DNA of 64,000 nucleotides from Alphaproteobacteria bacterium (GTDB taxonomy: Bacteria; Pseudomonadota; Alphaproteobacteria; GCA-2746255). The translations under genes and the position numbers were made by a program. The notes below the pieces were generated by a model. The model was not told where the DNA came from and made no database searches. It worked only from the letters and a program-made list of their open reading frames with translations. The stretch is from assembly GCA_965249135.1 (NCBI GenBank), contig OZ252220.1, positions 1,408,001 through 1,472,000 on the forward strand. Reading direction: 5' to 3'. Positions 7,391-47,179 of this stretch are shown here, piece by piece (position 1 is the stretch's first letter; each line of letters starts with the position of its first letter).

Positions 7391-9904
7391 TCAGGTGCCG
7401 GTCTTCATGGACGGGCCGCCGGGCAGGGCCTCCGCGGGCGAGGGCGGCGCTTCCTCGCCATCGCGGCTTAAGTCCGTCGCATGGTATGGCAGGCAGCAAC
7501 GAACGGTCGTCCCTTTGCCGGGTGCCGACGTAAGCTCGACCCTGCCGCCGTGCAATTCGACAAACTTCTTCACCAGCGGCAAGCCGAGGCCCGAGCCGCG
7601 CCCCTTGCTGGAACTGCCGCGTTCGAATCTTTCGAAGATCCGCTCCTGTTCTTCCAGCGGGATGCCGACGCCCGTATCCATCACTTCCAGAACGAGATCT
7701 TCGTTCTCCTTGCGGGCCGAAAGCGAGATGGTGCCGCCCGAGGTACTGAAATTGATCGCATTGTTCAGAAGCTTGAAGAGAACTTGCTTCAGACGTTGCT
7801 TGTCGGCACGAATCGCCGGCGGGTTGCCTTGAAAGTCCATCACGACGATTAGATTCTTTTCGTTCGCTTTTTCGCGAACAAGCCGAAGTACTTCTTCCAT
7901 CAACGTGCGAATGGGGACCTCTTCTTGTTGGATCGCCATCTGGCCGACCTCGATCACCGCCAAGTCGAGGATGTCGTTGATGAGCGACAGCAGCACCTGG
8001 GAAGAATCAAGGATGCCTTCCACGTAGCCCGCCTGTTGGGTGGTGAGACTGCCGAAATAGCCCTGCTCGAGTAGCTGGGAAAAACCGATAATCGTGTTAA
8101 GCGGCGTACGAAGTTCGTAGGAAACGTGGGCAACGAATTCGGACATCAGCTTATCCGCTGCCTCCAGCGCCTCGTTCCGCTCCCTGAGTGCGCGTTCGAC
8201 CCGGGTGCTGTCCGTCACGTCGACATAGCGCCATAAGACCCCGCCATCCGGAAGCGGCAGGCTTGCGTAATCCACCGTCGTACCATCCTGGCGGTCGAAG
8301 CGGCCATGTTTCGGGACCCGTTCGCAGGTGCCGGCGACAATTTTCGCCCGCAACGCCTGCCAATCCTTCGTGATGGCGAAACGCTCGGACGTTTCGACGA
8401 GTTCGGAGACGTGGGGCTCGCCTTCGAGTTCGATCGGAGAGAACCCCCAGATCCGCGCGTAGGCCGGGTTGCTGAGCTTCAGCCGCCCGTCGCTTCCGAA
8501 CACGGCGACCCCTTCATAGAGATTGTCGAGCGATTGCTGCTGGACCTTGATCAGCGTGTTGTACGAGCGCTCAAGCGCCAGCTTGTCCGTCACGTCCTCG
8601 TAGGTGCAGAGCAGCCCCCCGAAGGGATGGGGCGAGACGGTCGAGCGCAGCGTCGTGCCGTCCGGCAGGTGCAAAAGTTCCTCGACCGGATCGATGAGCG
8701 AGGTGAAGCGCGCAAGCTGCTCGCCCTTGTAAGCGGGGAAGTCGACGGTTTCCGGCAGACGCCTTCTGGAGCGAAGCGCTTCCAGCACTTCGCCCTGCAT
8801 CGGCTCCATCGCCAGCCAATCCTCACTCAACCGCCAGAGGCTGGCAAAGGCCTGGTTGAAGAATTTGAGCCGGGTGTCCGGTCCGTAGATCGCGATCGCG
8901 GTGGCTAGCCCTTCCAGCACCTTCGACTGGGCATCGATGTGACGGCTAAGTTCGTCCTGGACGCGCTCGACCTCCGTGAAGTCGAGCGAGTAACCGACCA
9001 TACCTTCCCCGTCGACAATCGGAATCTCGGTGACTTCGAGAAGACGCCGGAGGCCCTCGATAACGAAGTAATGGCTTTCCGATTGCGCGGAGCCGGCGCG
9101 CCAGGCGCGCTTTGCCACTGCCAACCCCTGATCGGCGATGACACCCTCGGCGAATTCCTGTTTCCGTTCGATCGCCTCCTCGGGACGCATGCCGACGACG
9201 GAAGCATAGGCCCAGTTGCAGAAGGTAAGGGCCAGGTCCTTGCTCCGTTGCCAAACCGGAAATGGAAGCTGATCGAGGAGAAACCGAAGCTGGTTCCGGT
9301 CTTCAAGAAGCTTCGCATTGCGCCCGACAACCTTCTTGGCGCGGGCTTCGGCTTCCGTGACGTCGTCGAAGCGGACCAGCGCGCCGAGCATCGTGCCATC
9401 CGCGTCCATAACCTCCCGGCCGCGCACCTTCAGCGCCCGGCCACCGACCGCCGTCACCTCGAAGGCGAAATCGCCGCCGGCATCGCGAAGGGTCGCAACC
9501 CCGGCGCGAAGCCGCTTCGCCGAGGCGGCGTCGAGCTCGGCGAGCGCGTCGGCGAAGCTGGGCGTGGCACCGGCCGACAGCGGCAGAAGGGAGGAAAAAT
9601 CCCCAAAGGCCGTTTCTTCTTCCGACTCATGCCGCCAGAAGAAGAGGGCGCCGGAGGTCGTGCTGAGAAGGTTACGCAGCTCTTCCGCCTCGGCTTCCGT
9701 CTCGTTTACGCGTGCCTCCAGGCGCTTAAGCTTTCGCCGGGCCGGGCGGGCGAAGAAGAGGAAGGCAAGCCCAAAGCCAAGACCGAGGATTGCAAGCGCC
9801 TGCAGCAATGGGTCGACAGGGGGAAATCCATCAAGAGAAAGTCGATCAAGCGGCAGCCGATCGAGGGAAAGCCACTCAGGAGGCAGCCGATCGAGGGAAG
9901 GCAT
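7391..9904 (-). CDS. divL: Multi-PAS sensor pseudo-histidine kinase, DivL-like
   Basis: N-terminal TM, PAS domains, H-box reads VSYELRTPL (Tyr for His), HATPase DTGVGI/GSGLGL; conserved position between ahcY and tsaE. Confidence 0.75.
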   Translation of the reverse strand: MPSLDRLPPEWLSLDRLPLDRLSLDGFPPVDPLLQALAILGLGFGLAFLFFARPARRKLKRLEARVNETEAEAEELRNLLSTTSGALFFWRHESEEETAFGDFSSLLPLSAGATPSFADALAELDAASAKRLRAGVATLRDAGGDFAFEVTAVGGRALKVRGREVMDADGTMLGALVRFDDVTEAEARAKKVVGRNAKLLEDRNQLRFLLDQLPFPVWQRSKDLALTFCNWAYASVVGMRPEEAIERKQEFAEGVIADQGLAVAKRAWRAGSAQSESHYFVIEGLRRLLEVTEIPIVDGEGMVGYSLDFTEVERVQDELSRHIDAQSKVLEGLATAIAIYGPDTRLKFFNQAFASLWRLSEDWLAMEPMQGEVLEALRSRRRLPETVDFPAYKGEQLARFTSLIDPVEELLHLPDGTTLRSTVSPHPFGGLLCTYEDVTDKLALERSYNTLIKVQQQSLDNLYEGVAVFGSDGRLKLSNPAYARIWGFSPIELEGEPHVSELVETSERFAITKDWQALRAKIVAGTCERVPKHGRFDRQDGTTVDYASLPLPDGGVLWRYVDVTDSTRVERALRERNEALEAADKLMSEFVAHVSYELRTPLNTIIGFSQLLEQGYFGSLTTQQAGYVEGILDSSQVLLSLINDILDLAVIEVGQMAIQQEEVPIRTLMEEVLRLVREKANEKNLIVVMDFQGNPPAIRADKQRLKQVLFKLLNNAINFSTSGGTISLSARKENEDLVLEVMDTGVGIPLEEQERIFERFERGSSSKGRGSGLGLPLVKKFVELHGGRVELTSAPGKGTTVRCCLPYHATDLSRDGEEAPPSPAEALPGGPSMKTGT

Positions 9905-10094
9905 ATCCAAGACGTCTTCAAGCCCCACCAACGGCACCGTCGCGAAGGCGGCGCCGGGCGACGTGCCGACGGAAGGCCGACGACTTATCCCCGTTTTCCA
10001 CGTTTTCCACACGGCCGGAAGTTTAGGCGCGAAACAAGACGTGAACAAGCCCGCGAAGGGCTTGGACGTGTCCGTTTCGGCCGGTTTCCATCCC

Positions 10095-11393
<1,299 letters not shown>

Positions 11394-12308: not shown

Positions 12309-13229
12309 TTAAGAAGAACTTTCGGACAAACCGCCAAGATCCCGATGCCGAAGTGACACGCGCTTGCCCTGGCCTTCCAGCCAGTTACGAAGTTTTTCGG
12401 CAATGAAAACGGAGCGGTGTTTACCGCCCGTGCACCCAATCGCAATTGTGAGGTAGCTCTTCCCCTCTTCTTCAAAACGGGGAAGTAGTAAACCGAGCAT
12501 CTTCGTCAAGCTGTCGAAGAAGGAATCGAATCCAGGATCCGCCGAAATGTATTCGCCGACCTCCTTATCACGGCCGTTGAGCGGCTGCAACGCCGGGACA
12601 TAGTGCGGATTTTTGAGAAAGCGGACATCGAAAACGAGATCCGCTTCGCGGGGAAGGCCGTTCGCATAGGCAAAGGAGGTGACGAACAGCAGTGTTTCCG
12701 CTGCTTCTTCGCCGCCAAACGTCTCTTTCAGCAGATTGCGAAATTCCCAAGGCGAAAGCTTCGTCGTATTGAAGACAAAGTCCGCGCGTTCCCAGATGGC
12801 AGCAAGCAATTGACGCTCGTGGGCAATTCCGTCGAGCACCGGGCGTTCGCCCCCGACCGGATGGCGCCGGCGCGTTTCCTTATAACGGCGCACCAACGCC
12901 TCGTCCTCGCAGTCCAGAAAAAGAATCTGGAGAGTGAGGCCCTTGAACTCGCTCAAGGGTTTGATTTCTTCCAGGACGTTCTCGACATCGAAATCCCGCG
13001 TGCGAACGTCGATCCCCACTGCCAACGGGCGGGCGAAGCTCTCCGGTGAGTCAAGGAGTCGCCGAAGAAAGGAGAGCGGCAGGTTGTCGATCGCCTCGAA
13101 ACCGAAATCCTCGAGCGCATGCAGCGCCGTCGTGCGTCCCGCCCCGGAAAGTCCGGTCACCAACAGCACCCGTCGTGACGAAGACGAAGCCATGCTCACT
13201 GCGGCCCTTTCAGGCGGCGTAGCCCCCAT
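12309..13229 (-). CDS. rapZ: RNase adapter / P-loop protein RapZ (YvcJ family)
   Basis: VTGLSGAGRT, IDNLP, DVRFLKNPHY, IGCTGGKHRSV. Confidence 0.92.
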   Translation of the reverse strand: MGATPPERAAVSMASSSSRRVLLVTGLSGAGRTTALHALEDFGFEAIDNLPLSFLRRLLDSPESFARPLAVGIDVRTRDFDVENVLEEIKPLSEFKGLTLQILFLDCEDEALVRRYKETRRRHPVGGERPVLDGIAHERQLLAAIWERADFVFNTTKLSPWEFRNLLKETFGGEEAAETLLFVTSFAYANGLPREADLVFDVRFLKNPHYVPALQPLNGRDKEVGEYISADPGFDSFFDSLTKMLGLLLPRFEEEGKSYLTIAIGCTGGKHRSVFIAEKLRNWLEGQGKRVSLRHRDLGGLSESSS

Positions 13230-13650
13230 CCCAGTTTGCCATCATCGCATGGCGGAGCTTCGCCACCGCCGATGCCTCGAAGGGGGCCAGGAAAATCCGC
13301 GGAAGCGTGACGCCGAGATAGGTGCAATGGGCCGCCTTCGGGCTGCGTACGAGGTTTTCAGGCAAAACGAGATCGACGACGAGCACGAGCGGCGCTGCGG
13401 ACGCCGCCGCCACCTGCACGATGCCGATCCCGCGAATCTCGAGAAGACCGGCGATCGGCGGCGGTGACGAGGCAGTGAGCCTTCCCTTCCGCATGGCGAG
13501 GCAGGTCTGGTCATCCGCAATCAGCCCGGCCCCGGCCTCGACCAGGCGCAAGGCCAAATCGGACTTGCCGCTGCCAGACGGCCCGCGTAAGAGAAGGGCC
13601 GCCTGTTTCCAGGCGACCGAGGTGCCGTGGACTTGGATCATGCCGGCCAA
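13210..13650 (-). CDS. hprK: HPr kinase/phosphorylase (short alphaproteobacterial form)
   Basis: VHGTSV, GPSGSGKSDLAL, IADD, LEIRGIGI. Confidence 0.9.
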   Translation of the reverse strand: MAGMIQVHGTSVAWKQAALLLRGPSGSGKSDLALRLVEAGAGLIADDQTCLAMRKGRLTASSPPPIAGLLEIRGIGIVQVAAASAAPLVLVVDLVLPENLVRSPKAAHCTYLGVTLPRIFLAPFEASAVAKLRHAMMANWDGGYAA

Positions 13651-25924: not shown

Positions 25925-27157
25925 ATGGCAAGCCGGCCTGAAAAAATCGTCTTCGAAGGCGCCCATGGATTGAAGCTTGCGGCGCGGCTCGACCGTCCGA
26001 AGGGCCCTCCCAAGGCCTATGCGCTTTTCGCCCATTGCTTCACCTGCACGAAAGACATCTTCGCCGCCTCGCACATCGCAAGCGCGCTTGCCGAAAGCGG
26101 AATTGCCGTGCTGCGCTTCGATTTCACCGGCTTAGGCAGCAGCGAAGGCGAGTTCAAAAACACGAATTTCACGTCGAACGTCGAGGATCTCGTGGCCGCC
26201 GCGGACTACCTTCGAGCTGAGCTCAAAGCACCGAAAATCCTGATCGGTCACAGCCTGGGCGGTGCGGCGGTGCTGGTCGCGGCAAGCCGCATCAAGGAAG
26301 CAATTGCCGTGGTAACCATCGGTGCGCCTTCCAGCCCCGACCATGTGAGCCACCTCTTCGAGGGCGGGCTCGACGCCATCGCCGAGCATGGCGAGGCCGA
26401 AGTGCGCATTGGCGGGCGGCCCTTCCGCATTCAGAAACATTTCCTGGAGGACATCGCTTCCCAGAACATGAGGGAAGCGATCGGGTCATTGAAACGGGCG
26501 CTGCTGGTTTTCCATTCGCCGGTCGACCAAACGGTCGGCATCGAGAACGCGCAGGAGATCTTCGTCGCGGCGAAACATCCGAAAAGTTTCATCTCGCTCG
26601 AGGATGCGGATCACCTGCTCGGCAAAAAGAAGGACGCGACCTACGTCGCCGAAACCCTTGCCGCCTGGGTGAAGCGCTATCTCGACGGGGAAAGGGAGGG
26701 CGAAACGGCGCCCAAGCTGGACGCGGCGGAGGGCACCGTGCTTGTCGCGGAGACGGGGACGGGCAAGTTTGCGAACGTCATTCAAACGGGCCTCCACCGC
26801 GTCGGCGCCGACGAGCCGGTCGCCTTTGGCGGCACGGATACGGGGCCGTCGCCCTATGACCTTCTGCTGGCGAGCCTCGGCGCCTGCACATCGATGACGC
26901 TTCGCATGTACGCGGACCGGAAGAAGTGGCCACTTGAGAAGGTGGCCGTCACGTTACGCCACCAGAAGATTCATGCAAAAGACTGTCGGGACTGCGAGAC
27001 GAAGGGGGGAAAGGTCGACGAGATCGAGCGCGAAATCGAAGTCGAAGGCCCGCTCGACGCCGAGCAGCGTGAAAGGCTGCTGGAAATCGCCGACAAATGC
27101 CCGGTCCATCGCACGCTCCATTCGGAGGTTCGCATCGTCTCGCGATTGAGCGAATAG
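25925..27157 (+). CDS. Bifunctional alpha/beta hydrolase-OsmC family protein
   Basis: AHCFTC, GHSLGG; C-terminal ADEP...LGACT...KCPVHRTL. Confidence 0.92.
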   Translation: MASRPEKIVFEGAHGLKLAARLDRPKGPPKAYALFAHCFTCTKDIFAASHIASALAESGIAVLRFDFTGLGSSEGEFKNTNFTSNVEDLVAAADYLRAELKAPKILIGHSLGGAAVLVAASRIKEAIAVVTIGAPSSPDHVSHLFEGGLDAIAEHGEAEVRIGGRPFRIQKHFLEDIASQNMREAIGSLKRALLVFHSPVDQTVGIENAQEIFVAAKHPKSFISLEDADHLLGKKKDATYVAETLAAWVKRYLDGEREGETAPKLDAAEGTVLVAETGTGKFANVIQTGLHRVGADEPVAFGGTDTGPSPYDLLLASLGACTSMTLRMYADRKKWPLEKVAVTLRHQKIHAKDCRDCETKGGKVDEIEREIEVEGPLDAEQRERLLEIADKCPVHRTLHSEVRIVSRLSE

Positions 27158-27162
27158 TTCTT

Positions 27163-27993
27163 TCAGGCAATCTCGCGCAGAAGCCCGATGCCGGCTTCGC
27201 AGTCCACGTAACGAAGCCGGTAACACGCGCCGGCCTCCGCGATCTTCAGGAGGCGTTGCAGCTTCGTTTCCGCATCGATTCCTTGAGTGAAATACCGCCC
27301 CATGAGATCGCGAAGCACCTCGCTCTTGCCGATCGCCTCCATGCTGGCGGAGCCCGAGCTCATCCGATCGAGGAGCACGATGGCTAAAATGGGCGCCGCC
27401 TCGCCAAACTCGGCGATCTCGCCCGGCCTCAAGCCCACGAACCGTCCATAGTCGTTGCCGAGCACCTCGCGTTCACGCAGGAAGCCGCAAAACCCATCCG
27501 TTACGTTTTCGGGTAGCGGCAGACGAAGCCTGGGCGCTACGCCAAAGGAAAGGGCGCTTCCTTCGCTTTCGCGCACCGCCAGCACGTCGTCCGTGAAAAC
27601 GGCCGCACCCGCCGCCGCCCCGTGGACCGCCATCGTGCTCTTGCCGACCTTGCCGCTGGCCGGGAAGACGAGCAGCCCGCCCTCCCACCTCATGGCCGCG
27701 GCATGAATGCAAAGCAGCTCGGGATTGGCGGCGATGAAGGCGATATAGAGTTCGGCAAAGAAGCCCGCGACGGCTTCGTAATCGTCGATGTAGTCGTAAG
27801 GCGCGGAATCGAGCCCTTGGGATTCGACCCGGTAGCCCGTCCGCGTCCGCTCAAGCACGACGACCGGGTTGAGCGGATCGCCATCCCACGCCCCGTTCGG
27901 CCAGGTCGCGATCGGGGCGTGAAGGAAGGGCAGGAGGTGATCGCAGCCTGCGAAGGAAATCGGGGACGGGACCCCTTCGAAACGAAGCAGCAT
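27163..27993 (-). CDS. HPr-kinase-related P-loop Ser/Thr kinase-like protein
   Basis: IHAAA...FPASGKVGKST (Walker A), FTDDVL acidic pair, the HprK-like layout seen in peptide-modifying kinases. Confidence 0.72.
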   Translation of the reverse strand: MLLRFEGVPSPISFAGCDHLLPFLHAPIATWPNGAWDGDPLNPVVVLERTRTGYRVESQGLDSAPYDYIDDYEAVAGFFAELYIAFIAANPELLCIHAAAMRWEGGLLVFPASGKVGKSTMAVHGAAAGAAVFTDDVLAVRESEGSALSFGVAPRLRLPLPENVTDGFCGFLREREVLGNDYGRFVGLRPGEIAEFGEAAPILAIVLLDRMSSGSASMEAIGKSEVLRDLMGRYFTQGIDAETKLQRLLKIAEAGACYRLRYVDCEAGIGLLREIA

Positions 27994-28034
27994 GGGTTAG
28001 AAAGGCGGGCTTAAGCCGGCAACCGGAAGCGCGA

Positions 28035-28244
28035 TCAGGAAGGCCGGCTCGGCCGCGTCGGCCGGGTGGGCCGGGTGGGCCGCGTCGGACAGGACTTCCC
28101 CTTGCCGCAGGGCGAGGGCTTGATCTTCGCCATCGCGCTGCCGTCGAGATGAAGCAACACCGGCGCCGTGTAGACGACCGCCGCCCCGACGCCTAATCGG
28201 GCGAGTGCCTTGCGGCGATTGATTTCCTTGGTTTCCGATGCCAT
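28035..28244 (-). CDS. Small secreted/precursor peptide with twin-arginine-like leader and (P-T/S-R) repeat tail
   Basis: NRRKAL + hydrophobic stretch + AMA; core KIKPSPCGKGKSCPTRPTRPTRPTRPSRPS; repeat codons vary synonymously. Confidence 0.75.
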   Translation of the reverse strand: MASETKEINRRKALARLGVGAAVVYTAPVLLHLDGSAMAKIKPSPCGKGKSCPTRPTRPTRPTRPSRPS

Positions 28245-28371
28245 CGCTTTTTACCCAATCCCGGTTACGTGGGGTCCGCCTGCCGATTCGCAACAAGTCT
28301 ACCCCCCATTTCTTTATATCCCATTTCCGCAGGCACGAAAAACGCCGTCCCCATTAACCATGTTTTTCCTT

Positions 28372-29529
28372 TTAATTCAAAGCCTCCTCAAGGATGTAGA
28401 TCAACTCGACCACCGGTTTCCCGAACTCGAGGCGCACGGTTTCCCGGCCCGCCTCGCGAAGGTGAAACCGTCCCTTCGCCAACGCCGGCAGGTAGTCCGG
28501 ATGATGGGCGTAACGGCCGGAAGGCTGAAGGGTGAACCCTTCGTCCTTCCCCTTCTCGAGCGAGAGCGCAAAAAGCCCCCCTGCACGCAATGCTTGGAAG
28601 GCAGCCGTCATAAGCGCTTCGAGATCGCCGAAATAGACCAGCGAATCGCAGGCGATCAGAAGGTCGTAAGCCGGCTCGGGCGCCCGCTCGAGGAAGGTAA
28701 GCGCGTCTTCCACATGGAGCGCGTCGTAAAGGCCACGCGCCTTGGCCCGTGAGATCATTTCCTGCGAAAGGTCCACCCCCGAAAGCGTGTTCGCCAGTTC
28801 CCGAAACGGAATGCCTGCGAGCCCCGTCCCGCAGCCGATGTCGAGAATGTCGAGGGGGCCCGAGTTTCGGTCGACGACGCGCCGGACGTATTCAAAGAGG
28901 ATTTCCGGCCCGCGGTAGTTCAGGCTTTTGCAAAGATGTTCGTCGAAGATTTCGGCGTAAACGTCAAAATAGTTCTACACATAGGCTGCCGGCGGGCGTG
29001 GCGGCATTTCTCCTTCTCCGAGTGCGGCGATCATGAAGCCCACCTCGACGTCATCCGGATCCAGCTCCTGGCAGCGGCGATAGCAACGTAGCGCTTCTGG
29101 CTTGCGGTTCAGGTGACTGAACGTTTCACCAAGCCGCCAATGGGCTTTTTCATAATTGGGCTTAAGCGCGATCGCGCGCTCGAAGAAGGGGGCGGCACGT
29201 TCATGCTGGCCTTCCATCGTCAGCGCCTTTCCGATCGCATAGGCGTTGCGTGCTTCGACCCTTGTGCGTCGATTATGAATCTCGGCCGCTTCGTCCTTGC
29301 TTCCTTGTTCCACCAGTAGGCTTTCCAGGGCTTCAAGGGCCGCCAGGTGGCGGGGCACGCGCGTAAGCAGGTGGCGGGGCACGCGCGTAAGAAGGTCCCG
29401 GTAGCCGGCGACGGCGTCGGCAAGACGGCCCGCTTGACGATGCTGCTCGGCAAGGTAATAAGCCTGCGCCTCGTCGGGTTCTGCCGCGTCCGACGGCCCC
29501 AAGGACTTACTCGACGCCTTCGGCGTCAT
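28372..29529 (-). pseudogene. TPR-containing SAM methyltransferase interrupted by in-frame TAG at 28975-28977
   Basis: Reading continues in frame: PPAAYV*NYFDVYAEIFDEHL...LDIGCGTGL...GVDLSQEM, joining ORF 28372-28776. Confidence 0.85.
29344..29391. repeat. Exact 24-bp tandem duplication (encodes LLTRVPRH twice)
   Basis: caggtggcggggcacgcgcgtaag x2. Confidence 0.92.
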
Positions 29530-31631: not shown

Positions 31632-32404
31632 TTAAGAACGCTTGCCTTTCGATCCCAAGAGCGAGCCCAGATAGTACCAGATAAAAAAGCTGTTCGTGAC
31701 CAGATAGCGTTTCCACAGATACCGTGGCTCGGTGGCCAACCAGAACAGCCACTCAAGGCCTGCCTTCTGCATCCAGACCGGCGCGCGGCGCACGGTGCCG
31801 GCGAAGAAGTTGAAGGCGGCGCCGACGCCTAGCTGGACGCCCTTCAGATGCGGTGCGTAGGCCGCCATCCAATACTCCTGCTTCGGGTAGCCAAGTCCGA
31901 CGAAGACGAGGCGGGCCCCCGAATCGTTGATCCGCGCCACCAGCTCGCCATCCATGGCGGGCTCGAGGGGAAGCAGCGGCGGCGATTCGATGCCGGCGAT
32001 CACCAGCGCGGGGAATTGTTTCTCAAGCCTTTGCCTCATCGCCTTGGCCGTCGCCGCAGAGCCACCGAAAAAATAGAGCGGCAGCTTCTTTTTTCCGCCT
32101 CGCTCATCAGACGCAGCATGAGATCGGGGCCGGCCACCCGCTTGGCTTCGGCGTGGCCCTGTGCTCGAAGCGCCCAGACCAGCGGCATGCCGGCGCTGGT
32201 GACCCAGAGCGCGTCTTTCATGATTGCAAGCAGTCGGCGATCCGTCTTTGCCGTCGTCACCATGTGCACGTTCGCGATGCAGACATAGCCGCCTATCCCC
32301 GCCTCGGCGGCGTCGAGGATCGTCGCCGTTGCCGCGGCAAGGCTGCCTACCGTCACCGGCGCGCCGATGACGTGCCCCGTCTTAAGGTTTGCGGCTTGCG
32401 TCAT
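31632..32404 (-). pseudogene. WecB/TagA/CpsF glycosyltransferase, frameshifted near 32089-32094
   Basis: N-half ANVH...RVAGPDLM and C-half FVGLGYPKQE...GVGAAF...GLEW are in different frames; adding one A to the A6 run restores KKKLPLYFFGGS. Confidence 0.85.
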
Positions 32405-33033
32405 CGCGGTATTTCCGCTCCCAGTTAAACGCCGTCTCGACGATGAAGCGAAGGTTGTCATGTTTCGGTTGCTAGTCGAGGGCCGCATGGATGCGGTCCG
32501 CATTTGCGATCAGCCCCGGCGGATCGCCGGCACGCCTTGGGCCTTCCGTGACCGGAAAATCGACGCCGGATACCTGCTTCACCGTCTCGACGACCTCGCG
32601 CACGCTTGCCCCGTGGCCATAGCCGCAATTTAAGGTGAGGGAACCGCCGCCTCTCCTCAAGTGATCGAGGGCGGCAAGATGGGCGGACGCCAAGTCCTCG
32701 ACGTGAATGTAGTCACGGATGCAGGTGCCATCCGGCGTCGGGTGGTCGGTGCCGAAGATCTCGATCTTCGGGCGCAGGCCGAGGGCCGCTTGCACGGTGA
32801 GCGGGATGAGGTGGCTCTCCGGGTCGTGGGCCTCGCCGATCCTGGCATCTAGATCGGCACCGGCGGCGTTGAAGTAGCGGAGGATGACGTAACGAAGGTC
32901 CGAGACGTTCGCCATATCCTGAAGCAGGCGTTCGCTGATCATTTTCGACGCACCATAGGGATTGATCGGCTCAAGCGGCGTCACTCCGCCGACCCGGTCG
33001 CCCTTCGGGATGCCATAGACCGCCGCCGTCGAG
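32382..33033 (-). pseudogene. galE: UDP-glucose 4-epimerase remnant (5' truncated, internal TAG at 32472)
   Basis: STAAVYG, YGASK, LRYFNAAGA, DGTCIRDYIHV; no N-terminal Rossmann motif; LD*QPKHDNL...W continues past the stop. Confidence 0.88.
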
Positions 33034-43445: not shown

Positions 43446-45526
43446 TTGCGGGTCGATCCCTTTTTAACCTCGCTCCAGGCGTTGACCGCCCATTTCGGCA
43501 AACCCCTCGACGTCGCCGATCTTCACGCCGTCGTGCCGTCTTCGAAAGACGGGACAACAACGAAAGGCTTCGCCCGCGCCGCCGGAAGGCTGGGCTTTCG
43601 GGTTCGTAAGACCACCGCCGCACCCGAGCGCGCGCGTCCGCCTTTTCTGCTTCTGGGGCCGAAGGGGCAGGCGAAGGTGCTGGTGCTTGAGCGTGAAGGG
43701 GCGAAGTTCTGTCTTTTCGATCCGGCAAGCGGAGAAAACCGGACCGAGCCGGCGGCAAGCCTCGGCGGGGTACAAGACGTCCTCCTTCTCCGGCCCCACC
43801 TCACCTTTGCCCGCGCGGATGGCCTTCGCCGTCTCTTAAGCGGGCGCTTCCGGCGCGTCGTTTTCGAAATCCTGCTCGCCTCGCTGGTCATCAACGTCTT
43901 CGCGTTGGCGGCACCGCTCTTCGTGATGACGGTTTACAACAAGGTCATCGCACAGGCCGCCTTGGACACGCTCAACGTGCTCGCACTCGGCATGCTGACC
44001 CTCTACGCCTTCGACACCGTGCTTCGTGGGATCCGCGGCTATATCGTTAGTCACACCGGCGCCCGGGTCGATGCCATCCTCGGCGGCGAGACGATGCATC
44101 GCGTGCTCAATCTTCCTTACCGGGATCTGGAAAGCGCGCCAGCCGGTTTGATGAACGAGCGCCTCCGGCAACTCGACACGGTTCGGGAATTCTTCACCGG
44201 TGTCGTGCCGGTGCTACTCGTCGATCAGTTCTTCATTCTGCTTTTTCTGATCGCGCTTTTTTTCCTGAGTCCGTTTCTTGGCGGTGTCGCCCTTGCCGTC
44301 CTGCCGATGGCGCGCTCCTTTTTTTTGCATTGCATTGGGCACAGCGCGGTTTTTTCGAACAACGCTTTCGAGCGCTTGCGACACGCCCGTCGACCTATTT
44401 GGAGACGCTTCGTAACGCATTGACGGTGAAGTCCCTTGGCCTCGAGCCCGAGGTCGAACGCCGCTGGGAGGAACGCGTCGCCGATGCCGCCGCGACGGGG
44501 TTTCGCGCCGGCAACCTGGCGGCGAGTGTGAGCGCCGTCGGCATGCTGCTGCAACAATTGGTGGCGCTTGCCATCGTTTTCTTTGGAGCGCGTCTGGTCA
44601 TCCATGGCGAGTTGAGCATCGGCGCGCTGGTTGCCGCGAACATTCTTGCGGCACGGGCCATCGCACCGGTTCGCCAAACCGTGTCTGCATGGAATCAATT
44701 GCAAGAGGCGCGCACCGCCTTTCAGCAACTTCGAGTCTTCCTCGAATCGCCTCAAGCCGGCACGCCCGGCGAGGCGGCGGCCCTTCCTCCCTTCGAGGGC
44801 AAGATCAGATTCGAAGATGTCGGTTTCCGCTATGGACCCGATCTGCCGCCGGTACTGGATCGGATCGCGTTCGAGATCCCGAAGGAAGCGATCGTCGCGA
44901 TCATCGGTCCGGCGGGATCCGGGAAAAGCACGCTAGCCAAACTGCTGCAGGGACTCTACGCGCCTTCCTCCGGACGCATCCTGATCGACGAGACGGACAT
45001 CGCCCACGTGTCCGCGCCCGCTCTGCGCCGGCAAGTCATTTCGGTCCCCCAGGAAAACCAGCTCTTTTCCGGGACGGTACGTGAAAACCTCCTCTATGGC
45101 CTGCACGAGGTGGCGGCGGAGCGCGCGGTGGCGGCGGCGAAATTCGTCGGCGCCCATGACTTCATCCAGCGCCTTCCGAAAGGCTACGACACGGTCCTCG
45201 GCGAAGGCGGACGGGGCCTTTCCGCCGGGCAAAGGCAAATGTTCTGCGTCGCCCGGGCGCTGGCCAGGAACCCGAAAATCCTCATCCTCGATGAGGCGAC
45301 GAATGCGACCGATCCGGCCGCCGAAGCGGCGCTGCTTCGCAACCTGCGCCAGACGGTGAAGGGGCACACCGTGCTTTTGCTGACGAACCGGCTGGCGCCG
45401 GCCGCGATCGCGGACTATGTCGGCCTCATCGTGGACGGACGCATCGAAGACCTTGGTCCGTAATCGGAAATGATCGAAACCGTGCGGGAACGCCTGGCCG
45501 AACTCTCAAAGGGAACGGCGTCATGA
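43446..45526 (+). pseudogene. Type I secretion ABC transporter (HlyB/LapB-like with C39-like domain), frameshifted near 44310-44326 with a premature TAA at 45461
   Basis: LAAPLFVMTVYNKV TMD; GPAGSGKST, LSAGQRQ, ILDEAT; two ORFs in different frames; read-through of the TAA ends in an ATGA overlap with the HlyD gene. Confidence 0.82.
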
Positions 45527-46902
45527 GGAAAAGCAGCATTTTCGATTTCGGCGGTCGTTTGAGGCGTTTTCTGGCGTTCACGTCAAACGGGAAACGGGAT
45601 TTCACCGACTTCCATCCCGAGGCGGCAGGGGAGGATGCCGAACCTGCGCCTCTTGTCCAGCTGCTCGTTTTCACGATCGCACTCTTTCTTGTGACCGCCT
45701 TGCTCTGGTCAAGCCTTGGCACCGTCGAACAGGTGGCCAACGCATCCAGCATCGTCCGACCCTTCGGGCGGGTCAAGGTCGTCAACCACCCGGAAGGCGG
45801 CCAGGTGGCCATCATCCACGTGCGCGAAGGCGATGCCGTCGCGAAGGGTGACCCGCTCCTTGAGCTCGACGCTTCGTTTCTGGAGGAAGAAATCGATCGG
45901 CTCACGGATCAATGGCGAAGCCTGGTGGCCGAGATTGCGCGGCTCGAGGCGGAGGCTACCGGTTCACGGCTCGAGTTTGCGCCCGAGCTTCGTGAAACGC
46001 GGCCCGATCTCGAGCGTTTGCAGATCCGCCTTTTCGAATCGCACGCCAACGCGCTTAACAGCGACAAAAATGTTGCCGAGCACATCGTCGAGCAACGCAA
46101 CAGCGATACGGAAGCGTTGGCACGAAAGGTCGAAGAGTTGGAGGCGAGTCTTGTCATCCTGAAGAAGCAGGAACGTTCGGTCGGCGAACTAGCCGAGAAG
46201 GGTTATTTCCCGGAGTTGCGCTACCTTTCGATTCAGCGCCAACGCTCGGAAGCCGAAGGCGAGCTTGCGGGAACGCAGGAAAGACTGATTGCCGCCTTCG
46301 CGGCGTTTGCCGAAGCAAAAGAGCGCCTTAAGGCCATCGAGCGAAAGTGGAACGCGGAAGTCCTCGACCGGCTGGCCGGCGCCCAAAAGGAACACGACCA
46401 AGCCTTCGGCACGTTGACCCAACTGAAGGCGCGGCGCCATGCCCTCGTCATCGAGGCGCCGGACGCAGGCATCGTCCAGAATCTGCAGGTCACCAGCGTC
46501 GGTCAGTCGATCGGCAAGAACGATGCCTTGATGAACATCGTGCCCACGACGGACAGCCTGATCATCGAGGCGCGCATCCAGAACCGCGACATCGGCTACG
46601 TCTCCGTCGGCCAGATGGCCCGGGTCAAGCTTCGCACCTATGACTTTCTCCGCTTCGGGTCACTCGAAGGCGTCGTCGAGCAGGTGGCGGCAACCGCCGT
46701 CGCACCGGCCAATGGCGGGGAGTCCTACTTCCCGGTGGTCATCCGCACCTCGCGGAACTATTTGGGCGCCCACCCGGGCGAGCGGCCGGTGCAGCCGGGG
46801 ATGGAAGTCGACGTCGACCTTCGGATCGGCGAGAAGTCGACCCTTTCCTACCTCACGGACCGGATTTTCAGGACGGGCGCGCGGGTGTTTCGGGAGCGAT
46901 GA
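45523..46902 (+). CDS. HlyD-family type I secretion membrane fusion protein
   Basis: TM, VNHPEGG, VREGDAVAKGDPLL, IEAPDAGIV, NRDIGYV, PGMEV. Confidence 0.93.
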   Translation: MRKSSIFDFGGRLRRFLAFTSNGKRDFTDFHPEAAGEDAEPAPLVQLLVFTIALFLVTALLWSSLGTVEQVANASSIVRPFGRVKVVNHPEGGQVAIIHVREGDAVAKGDPLLELDASFLEEEIDRLTDQWRSLVAEIARLEAEATGSRLEFAPELRETRPDLERLQIRLFESHANALNSDKNVAEHIVEQRNSDTEALARKVEELEASLVILKKQERSVGELAEKGYFPELRYLSIQRQRSEAEGELAGTQERLIAAFAAFAEAKERLKAIERKWNAEVLDRLAGAQKEHDQAFGTLTQLKARRHALVIEAPDAGIVQNLQVTSVGQSIGKNDALMNIVPTTDSLIIEARIQNRDIGYVSVGQMARVKLRTYDFLRFGSLEGVVEQVAATAVAPANGGESYFPVVIRTSRNYLGAHPGERPVQPGMEVDVDLRIGEKSTLSYLTDRIFRTGARVFRER

Positions 46903-47179
46903 TGACCAGGCGGCGCGCAACCATGTCGTCGAAGGCGGCGCGAACGGCCTGCGCAAGCGCGCCCGCCTCCTGATCCGGAAAGGCTGCCCTATAGGTGTTG
47001 AGGATTTCTTGCCGCGTAGCCGGGGCCTCCAGCAGGCGCCAGATCCCACTCGTCACCGCATCCAGGTAGTAGACGTCCTGGCCCTCGGGCTCGACGAGAA
47101 AGAGGTCGTTTTCGACCTCCGTCGCGCTCACCGCCGGGCTGCGGCAATAGCGTGCTTCATCTTCTTTCACGGCATCCAT
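46868..47179 (-). CDS. PqqD-family protein (RiPP recognition element fold)
   Basis: 103 aa; EVENDLFLV...YYLDAVTSGIWRLLE...DMVARRLV matches the beta3-alpha3 PqqD pattern. Confidence 0.8.
   Translation of the reverse strand: MDAVKEDEARYCRSPAVSATEVENDLFLVEPEGQDVYYLDAVTSGIWRLLEAPATRQEILNTYRAAFPDQEAGALAQAVRAAFDDMVARRLVIIAPETPARPS

Follow-up and report, generated by a model that had tools for sequence, protein, structure and literature searches.

Phosphorylated ribosomal peptides of the LPP family were described in Bacillota by Popov et al. (Nat Commun, May 2026; PMC13381572), and the account given here follows the passages of that paper on which we draw. The lppA-K-B-S-D-N clusters encode a precursor whose leader reads YxxPxVLxHQxIxFETxxS, the HprK-like kinase LppK and LppB, a recognition element (RRE) for ribosomally made peptides that undergo modification after translation (RiPPs), together with the SipW-type signal peptidase LppS, the MsbA-like pump LppD and the nucleoside triphosphate (NTP) transferase LppN. 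LppK needs both the YxxP leader and the RRE, and stacks up to four phosphates on Ser3 of the core, all of which are abolished by the S3A substitution. LppS, which is of the signal-peptidase-I type, cleaves after T-1. Discrete lasso and LPP RREs bind [Y/W]xxPx[L/V/I/F/A], and the Y-16A and P-13A substitutions in LppA lower RRE binding. The clusters are often found in capsule loci and are restricted, according to the authors, to Bacillota (PMC13381572). Here we describe a 64,000-nucleotide (nt) stretch of an alphaproteobacterial genome (assembly GCA_965249135.1, contig OZ252220.1, positions 1,408,001 to 1,472,000), called the window throughout, in which a small peptide gene is followed by a kinase gene. 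An earlier note, made from the letters of the window alone, had proposed the two as a novel phospho-peptide system. It was found that the peptide-kinase pair is a real, conserved system, beyond chance neighbourhood. The pair is probably the two-gene core of a ribosomal peptide modification system, a proteobacterial counterpart of LPP, that makes a phosphorylated secreted peptide.

The features of the pair, in positions of the window, are as follows.

28035..28244, minus strand: precursor peptide gene, 69 amino acids (aa) plus stop, from the listing of open reading frames (ORFs); its homologues adjoin the kinase
28128..28244, minus strand: leader, residues 1-39, with an Arg-Arg pair, a moderately hydrophobic stretch, a putative A-M-A cleavage site and a YxxP motif
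28212..28217, minus strand: twin arginine R10-R11, invariant in 17 of 17 aligned peptides
28161..28172, minus strand: Y25-T-A-P28, which fits the [Y/W]xxP RRE-binding motif; Tyr and Pro invariant in 17 of 17
28089..28118, minus strand: P43-S44-P-C46...C52, recurrent core start with candidate acceptor Ser44 and two-Cys loop; the same arrangement occurs in many genera
28038..28088, minus strand: (P-T/S-R) repeat tail PTRPTRPTRPTRPSRPS, from translation and codons
27163..27993, minus strand: P-loop kinase with the fold of HprK and phosphoenolpyruvate carboxykinase (PEPCK), 276 aa, from motifs, AlphaFold2 model and Foldseek
27634..27645, minus strand: P-loop G117-K-S-T120; G117, K118 and S119 invariant in the family alignment
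27586..27591, minus strand: D135-D136, invariant in the family alignment
27511..27534, minus strand: P-R-L-R-L-P-L-P (residues 154-161), signature of the kinase family; R155 to L160 invariant, P154 and P161 nearly so

The peptide is composed of the leader MASETKEINRRKALARLGVGAAVVYTAPVLLHLDGSAMA (39 aa) and the core KIKPSPCGKGKSCPTRPTRPTRPTRPSRPS (30 aa, two Cys), in agreement with the description in the earlier note. Its stop (28035) is separated from the start of the downstream kinase gene (27993) by 41 bp, and the shared strand claimed for the two ORFs was borne out as the minus strand. Simple promoter and terminator scans gave nothing above shuffled sequence. The stretch 27100..28400, or near-identical versions of it, is present in 20 runs from 10 studies under 10 organism labels, suggesting that the bacterium occurs in many sample kinds.

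The earlier note would have been refuted, among other outcomes, by a peptide ORF that is not conserved or by kinase homologues with no repeat peptide beside them. Using tblastn and ORF listing, a homologous peptide was found beside the kinase in all five other genomes of the genus, and peptides with P-[ST]-[KR] repeat tails exist in further genera, with many members lacking such tails. Within the genus the leader is nearly constant and the cores vary in repeat type and number, with, for example, (PS[RG])n tails of up to ~40 residues. Genus-wide, the ratio of non-synonymous to synonymous substitution rates (dN/dS) takes values of 0.14-0.31 in the kinase and of 0.04-0.43 over 37 codons of the leader. 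Pairing of peptide and kinase extends to at least 10 further genera of Alphaproteobacteria; among the 26 loci returned from other genera, 10 show a small ORF bearing the same leader inside the fetched flank of the kinase.

Co-occurrence across genomes was measured with two profiles. The first, covering the kinase and its PqqD extension, matches 49 of 401 genomes of the class at E≤1e-10, a tally that includes G244, a genome flagged as unpublished and entering this tally only. The second, a leader-only profile of 37 positions, was run on apparently the same 401 genomes (the handles coincide) and matches 34 of them at E≤0.001, 31 of these at E≤1e-7. Of the 31 leader-positive genomes, 29 are also among the 49 positive for kinase/PqqD; the exceptions are G146 and G254, the latter rated 75% complete. 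The leader profile matches the source genome (G000, 2.1 Mb) at one place only, so that the leader is no generic signal peptide. Across a sample of the phylum it matches 5 of 401 genomes at E≤1e-6, two of them from another class, and in both of these the peptide stands directly upstream of a kinase-PqqD fusion. The linkage of peptide, HprK-like kinase and PqqD suspected earlier is thus real and widespread, as judged by neighbourhoods and by this profile co-occurrence.

A maximum-likelihood tree of 21 kinase domains splits into two clades at 100/99 support. Of the 12 rows in one clade, 11 have an adjacent peptide and one is cut by a contig end. The other clade, of nine rows, has an adjacent peptide in one only; in its genomes, one to three leader peptides are found at distances of 25-120 kb from the kinase. 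Kinases of this second clade (loci L049-L057) adjoin a histidine kinase/Fis-type response regulator pair, Wzz/GNVR chain-length genes and beta-barrel porin genes, as in exopolysaccharide (EPS)-type loci. Assignment of this clade, with its EPS/PEP-CTERM-type loci and two-component regulators, to NCBIfam HprK_rel_A was considered and rejected, with scores of 22-47 bits against a cut-off of 200. As a separate observation, G002 (locus L059, about 9826..10936, minus strand) holds three tandem copies of the peptide gene upstream of the kinase. In two of these the leader seems to be disrupted, its frame differing from that of the core, and the intact copy has a different core, Leu/Pro-rich with two Cys.

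To place the kinase structurally, an AlphaFold2 model was built from 15 sequences, with a mean pLDDT (predicted local distance difference test) of 90.7. Foldseek returned ATP-dependent PEPCKs matching over the whole length (E from 1e-5, query template-modelling score 0.45-0.60), and HprK/P catalytic domains also match (3tqf, 1kkl and 1jb1; E 6e-4 to 3e-3). PEPCK and HprK/P share a fold. The protein that the earlier note had called HPr-kinase-like has the HprK/PEPCK fold by the model and Foldseek, and the HAAA, GKST and DD motifs read from the translation are present at H97-AAA, G117-KST and D135-D136. H97 and R210 are further invariant residues of the family alignment, and R-x-R-x-P occurs in 113 of the 150 best representatives. 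The nearest curated models are the NCBIfam HprK-related kinases A and B (TIGR04352, TIGR04355), which match locally around the P-loop. In the comparison with such models that had been suggested earlier, the window kinase has these local matches yet reaches only 29.9 bits with HprK_rel_A (E 2.9e-7) against a cut-off of 200; with HprK_rel_B the match is sub-threshold (E 1.1e-4). Nine family kinases tested against the two models score 22-53 bits against the same cut-off and do not belong to that family. In Pfam, the window kinase has no match, Hpr_kinase_C included. With HPr kinase/phosphorylase it shares the fold and the P-loop region only, and it falls outside that family as delimited by Pfam and the NCBIfam hpr-ser model. 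The window does hold a separate HprK-like ORF at 13210, as the earlier note had said; this short ORF (146 aa, 13210..13650, minus strand) adjoins a RapZ-like P-loop ORF (12309..13229, minus strand), both recognized from translations only.

Most relatives of the kinase carry a recognition domain. A C-terminal PqqD domain (PF05402) is present in 98 of the 120 kinase homologues listed, and in 92 of the 150 best representatives of an exhaustive kinase/PqqD search, which counted 1036, 569 and 96 clusters at E thresholds of ≤0.001, ≤1e-10 and ≤1e-30, respectively. When the PqqD part of the profile was compared with solved structures, the best matches were leader-binding RREs, namely TbiB1 (E 5.5e-10) and LppB (9x8z, 9e-7), followed by TfuB1 (6jx3, 7e-6) and PbaB1 (9x90, 9e-5); the PDB codes agree with those given in the consulted passages of PMC13381572. 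The corresponding features of the window lie some way from the pair.

46868..47179, minus strand: stand-alone PqqD-type RRE, 103 aa, probable leader-binding partner, 19 kb from the pair, found by its match to the fusion profile
43446..46902, plus strand: ABC (ATP-binding cassette) transporter (split) and HlyD-type protein, from Pfam; possible exporter of uncertain membership, tail to tail with the PqqD gene

The PqqD gene at 46868..47179 had been missed in the earlier note, although it lies inside the window. Against the fusion profile its product gives E 5e-18, and against Pfam PqqD E 2.9e-7; PqqD proteins encoded next to the kinase in three other genera share 40% (G369), 38% and 32% identity with it. 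One other PqqD gene exists in the source genome, at 2.00 Mb, with no fusion-profile match at the threshold used. The gene at 46868..47179 is retained in four of four genus genomes examined, the source genome included. On these sequence matches it is the probable leader-binding partner. A complex prediction of the window PqqD with peptide residues 1-46 gave a score of 0.32, the best of three controls scoring 0.00; this lends weak support. Of 157 solved complexes, 116 reach the mark applied, as do 2 of 215 mismatches, but only 18 of the 157 reach it at 0.60 or under. The runs agree in at least 85% of contacts, with a partner pLDDT of at least 61. Since RRE-leader complexes have already been solved, the pass may reflect likeness only.

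The architecture of the cassette varies among genera. In the window genus the kinase stands alone beside the peptide. Of nine loci of other genera, four contain a kinase-PqqD fusion with unrelated neighbours, and five contain a kinase, a discrete PqqD and a PF14907 nucleotidyltransferase, the transferase being convergent in four and accompanied by glycosyltransferases in three. No peptidase family was found by Pfam among 6 + 15 window neighbours or among 62 neighbours of the nine related loci, and the Pfam-scanned neighbours of the pair include no MsbA-like exporter. The lasso B2 peptidase PF13471 has 0 matches in the source genome (the macrolactam synthetase was not searched for), in line with the earlier statement that this is not a lasso cluster.

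The leader would link the peptide to the recognition domain. In an alignment of 17 peptides, M1, R10, R11, L14, L17, G18, Y25 and P28 are invariant. Among 120 database relatives listed, the RR...G...YxxP pattern occurs in 116, with Tyr in all 116, and the Tyr sits 15 residues ahead of the AxA-like end. The window leader reads Y25-T-A-P28-V-L30, matching the LPP leader pattern [Y/W]xxPx[L/V]. The general layout is (S/T)RRxAL followed by a moderately hydrophobic Gly/Ala-rich stretch and, often, a basic residue before AxA. This resembles the consensus of twin-arginine translocation (Tat) signals, in which a basic residue before AxA is read as 'Sec-avoidance'. TatC is present in the source genome, and one family member bears the NCBI name Tat-signal protein. 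Judged from these sequence features, export of the peptide by Tat is plausible. The same RR...YxxP leader also heads proteins of 170-190 aa with a Pro/Ser/Ala-rich linker and a PepSY/YkoI-like C-terminal domain (P0176, P0195, P0206, P0212, P0218, P0228), so that the clients of the system may include folded proteins.

The core following the leader is variable. Family cores are of low complexity (Gly 23.5%, Ser 15%, Arg 14%, Pro 10%). One recurrent type reads x-[IV]-x-P-[ST]-P-C, with a second Cys 5-25 residues on, and the window core start KIKPSPCGKGKSC belongs to it. The arrangement P-[ST]-x-C...C after the leader is seen in many genera; P[ST]x0-2C falls within the first 14 core residues in 24 of 116 relatives, and at least two Cys fall within the first 40 in 43 of 116. 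The repeat codons are CCG ACG CGG / CCC ACC CGG / CCC ACC CGG / CCG ACG CGG / CCG AGC CGG / CCT TCC. Units 1 and 4 are identical, as are 2 and 3, and the two pairs differ synonymously only, so that the codon listing confirms the synonymous differences to which the earlier note had pointed. Tails of the P-[ST]-[KR] type are also seen in other genera, but the P-T/S-R repeat is missing from many family members, whose cores are Gly/Ser-rich, Arg-rich or a short Cys-loop. A 27-nt in-frame deletion at 28042..28068, spanning three P-x-R units, is present in contigs of two other runs, and a 60-aa variant of the window peptide exists in the database. Our analysis points to Ser44, in the recurrent P-S/T-P-C...C motif, as a better candidate for phosphorylation than the repeat; the acceptor role is assigned to it by analogy with Ser3 of LppA.

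From the gene conservation, linkage, kinase fold, motifs and leader-kinase co-occurrence obtained in this analysis, we infer a course of binding, phosphorylation and its site, export, cleavage and disulfide formation. The 69-aa precursor would be made in the cytoplasm, where its leader would be bound via Y25-x-x-P28 by a lasso-type PqqD domain, encoded here by the separate gene 46868..47179 and fused to the kinase in most relatives. The HprK/PEPCK-fold kinase would phosphorylate the core, most likely at Ser44, 19 residues past the Tyr. With the leader serving as a twin-arginine signal ending in A-M-A, the modified peptide would leave by Tat (or by Sec, the general secretion route), and general signal peptidase would free it after A39. 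Once the peptide is outside the membrane, a small loop could form between Cys46 and Cys52, with the cationic Pro-Thr/Ser-Arg tail remaining. Such use of general Tat/Sec export and signal peptidase would explain why the cluster has no dedicated peptidase or exporter. More tentatively, the Tat signal may double as a RiPP leader, with the RRE holding YxxP until phosphorylation and general export following. As part of the same tentative proposal, many genera may add decoration by the PF14907 transferase and glycosyltransferases, and phosphorylated envelope peptides may form a widespread, hitherto undescribed class in Proteobacteria, located at surface-polysaccharide loci.

The genes around the pair were also inspected. 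The pair is flanked by heptose, WecG-type and sugar-transferase genes, and related cassettes sit in polysaccharide loci with glycosyltransferases. Repeated occurrence at lipopolysaccharide (LPS), EPS and capsule loci directs attention to the cell envelope. Immediately upstream of the peptide gene, a gene for a protein with tetratricopeptide repeats (TPR) and an S-adenosylmethionine (SAM) methyltransferase domain (28372..29529, minus strand) has an in-frame TAG at 28975..28977; in G005 the orthologous ORF is intact and encodes 372 aa, with 62% identity extending across the stop. The TPR-methyltransferase protein also holds a tandem duplication, LLTRVPRH occurring twice. The ABC transporter (43446..45463, plus strand) is broken into a pair of ORFs that overlap (325 and 377 aa), by a frameshift or an assembly error, and is intact elsewhere, as one frame of 728 residues in G001 and G005 and of 786 in G004. 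The WecG/TagA-type glycosyltransferase (region 31632..32984, minus strand) is split into 31632..32039 and 32036..32503, and the epimerase ORF beside it (32472..32984) spans no more than the C-terminal part of its Pfam model.

Several results weigh against reading the pair as an LPP-like core. The kinase lies far below the cut-off of every curated family. In the window genus it has no PqqD domain, the PqqD gene being 19-28 kb off, and PF14907 has 0 matches in the source genome. Co-occurrence is imperfect in both directions: G146, which is rated 100% complete, carries a leader peptide and gave no match in a direct kinase search, and of the 49 genomes positive for kinase/PqqD, 20 gave no match to the leader, most of these 20 showing weak or partial matches. 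The Tat-signal model TIGR01409 gives the window peptide 14.1 bits against a cut-off of 16.7, and at E≤0.1 it picks up no more than 5 of the 17 family peptides, the best at 5.6e-4. The Tat leader proposed earlier is plausible from the invariant RR, the TatC in the genome and these five matches, with the window peptide itself below the cut-off. Ser or Thr is found within core residues 1-6 in 105 of 116 relatives, only modestly above the expectation from a Ser-rich composition, which weakens Ser/Thr right after the leader as a strong signal. Most codon changes in the kinase between strains are non-synonymous (10 of 15, in pooled contigs from three runs), and contig X10 of one run has a 1-nt deletion in the kinase at window position 27878, at a depth of about 10. 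This deletion may mark a strain whose kinase is broken, or it may be an assembly error. Several neighbouring genes are broken, so that decay in this lineage keeps a small probability.

Four other explanations were weighed in the light of these data. In the earlier note, the kinase places phosphates on many of the Thr/Ser that are spaced regularly along the PTR/PSR repeat, and the resulting charge-tunable peptide is then exported by Tat. P-[ST]-[KR] tails do recur in several genera, and the reading frame is kept when the repeat changes in length. However, repeat number varies among near-identical strains, many family cores have no such repeat, and LppK puts its up to four phosphates on one serine, lost in S3A (PMC13381572, in the parts drawn on). 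Since the repeat is variable in length and absent in many relatives, phosphorylation across it is unsupported, and we consider multi-site modification of the tail unlikely. It is somewhat more doubtful still that the peptide is an ordinary small Tat/Sec envelope protein and the kinase an enzyme acting on a sugar or another protein of an LPS/EPS pathway, the two being mere neighbours. Heptose, WecG-type and sugar-transferase genes do adjoin the pair, polysaccharide loci contain related cassettes, the fold matches over the whole length come from PEPCK, a small-molecule kinase, and some leader-bearing relatives are 170-190 aa long with a PepSY-like domain. Against this, most family kinases are fused to a peptide-binding RRE, the leader holds an invariant YxxP of the kind bound by such RREs, and leader and kinase occur together in 29 of 31 genomes, even when 25-120 kb apart.

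The remaining two explanations concern the route of export and the state of the system in this genome. If the leader served RRE binding only and were no Tat signal, the peptide could exit via the ABC/HlyD proteins beside the PqqD gene, as with LPP's MsbA-like pump. LPP clusters hold an ABC exporter (PMC13381572, same passages), and the PqqD-HlyD-ABC order is kept in three of three other genus genomes examined, but no transporter stands by the system in nine other genera examined, the RR is invariant and the AxA-type end general, and the ABC gene is split into two overlapping frames in this genome; we regard this exit as improbable. Least probable, in our estimate, is a decaying system in which the pair is a remnant that has lost the fused RRE and the nucleotidyltransferase and yields no modified product. 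The source genome has neither a PqqD fusion nor PF14907, several nearby genes are split or carry in-frame stops, and the kinase shows the non-synonymous changes and the 1-nt deletion in one contig described above. Both ORFs are nevertheless intact, all family-invariant kinase residues are kept, dN/dS values in the genus lie well under 1, and four of four genus genomes examined retain the PqqD gene.

If the preferred assignment, a leader-guided kinase system of LPP kind, is correct, the peptide would be the missing substrate of a large orphan kinase/PqqD family (569 clusters at E≤1e-10), and a RiPP class described from Bacillota only would be extended to Proteobacteria. It would also show an RRE-binding motif written into a general export signal, sparing a dedicated peptidase and exporter. 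The system can be tested directly with three small genes.

A cytoplasmic hold on an export signal has parallels outside RiPP biosynthesis. The Tat signal-binding chaperones TorD, DmsD and NapD hold an RR signal in the cytoplasm until maturation is finished. By comparison, the binder here would be a PqqD-type RRE, and maturation would be phosphorylation of the passenger peptide.

Among RiPPs, the tailoring of phosphorylated lasso peptides also uses an HprK-type kinase and a PqqD/B1 RRE, sometimes with a nucleotidyltransferase, as in paeninodin-like kinases and pseudomycoidin PsmK/PsmN (PMC6993621, in the part consulted; paeninodin is taken as cited in PMC13381572). The PqqD domains of the present family match lasso B1 proteins best. 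The systems differ in that the source genome has no B2 peptidase (0 matches to PF13471), and in that the lasso acceptor is a C-terminal Ser.

The description of the pair as novel was an overstatement, given that the closely analogous LPP family was published in May 2026 (PMC13381572). Neither Proteobacteria nor twin-arginine is mentioned in that paper (0 occurrences), and no description of a proteobacterial form was found in the literature searched; the supplementary cluster lists of PMC13381572 could hold non-Bacillota cases. Two papers on RRE genome mining do not mention kinase or HPr in the portions that were term-searched.

Compared with LPP, as far as the consulted passages describe it, the likenesses run through the whole system. 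Both combine a YxxPx[V/L] leader and variable core with an HprK-like kinase and a lasso-type PqqD RRE, with no macrolactam synthetase among their parts (in the source genome no search aimed at it was made). Leader removal is of the signal-peptidase-I type in LPP and would be so here, polysaccharide loci are frequent, and PF14907 is present in part of the relatives. The spacing is also close, with the Tyr at -15 from the putative cleavage site here and at -16 in LppA, and with 19 residues from Tyr to the first conserved Ser here and 18 in LppA. Unlike LPP, the present leader is twin-arginine and Tat-like with an AxA site, and the cluster has no dedicated SipW-type peptidase or MsbA-like pump. 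The RRE, which is discrete in LPP, is usually fused to the kinase C-terminus in relatives and is unlinked in the window genus. The cores are of low complexity (Gly/Ser/Arg/Pro) or of P-S/T-P-C...C type, and the hosts are Alphaproteobacteria. On these sequence features, the system is closest to LPP and appears to be a variant of this recently described kind, in a proteobacterial form.

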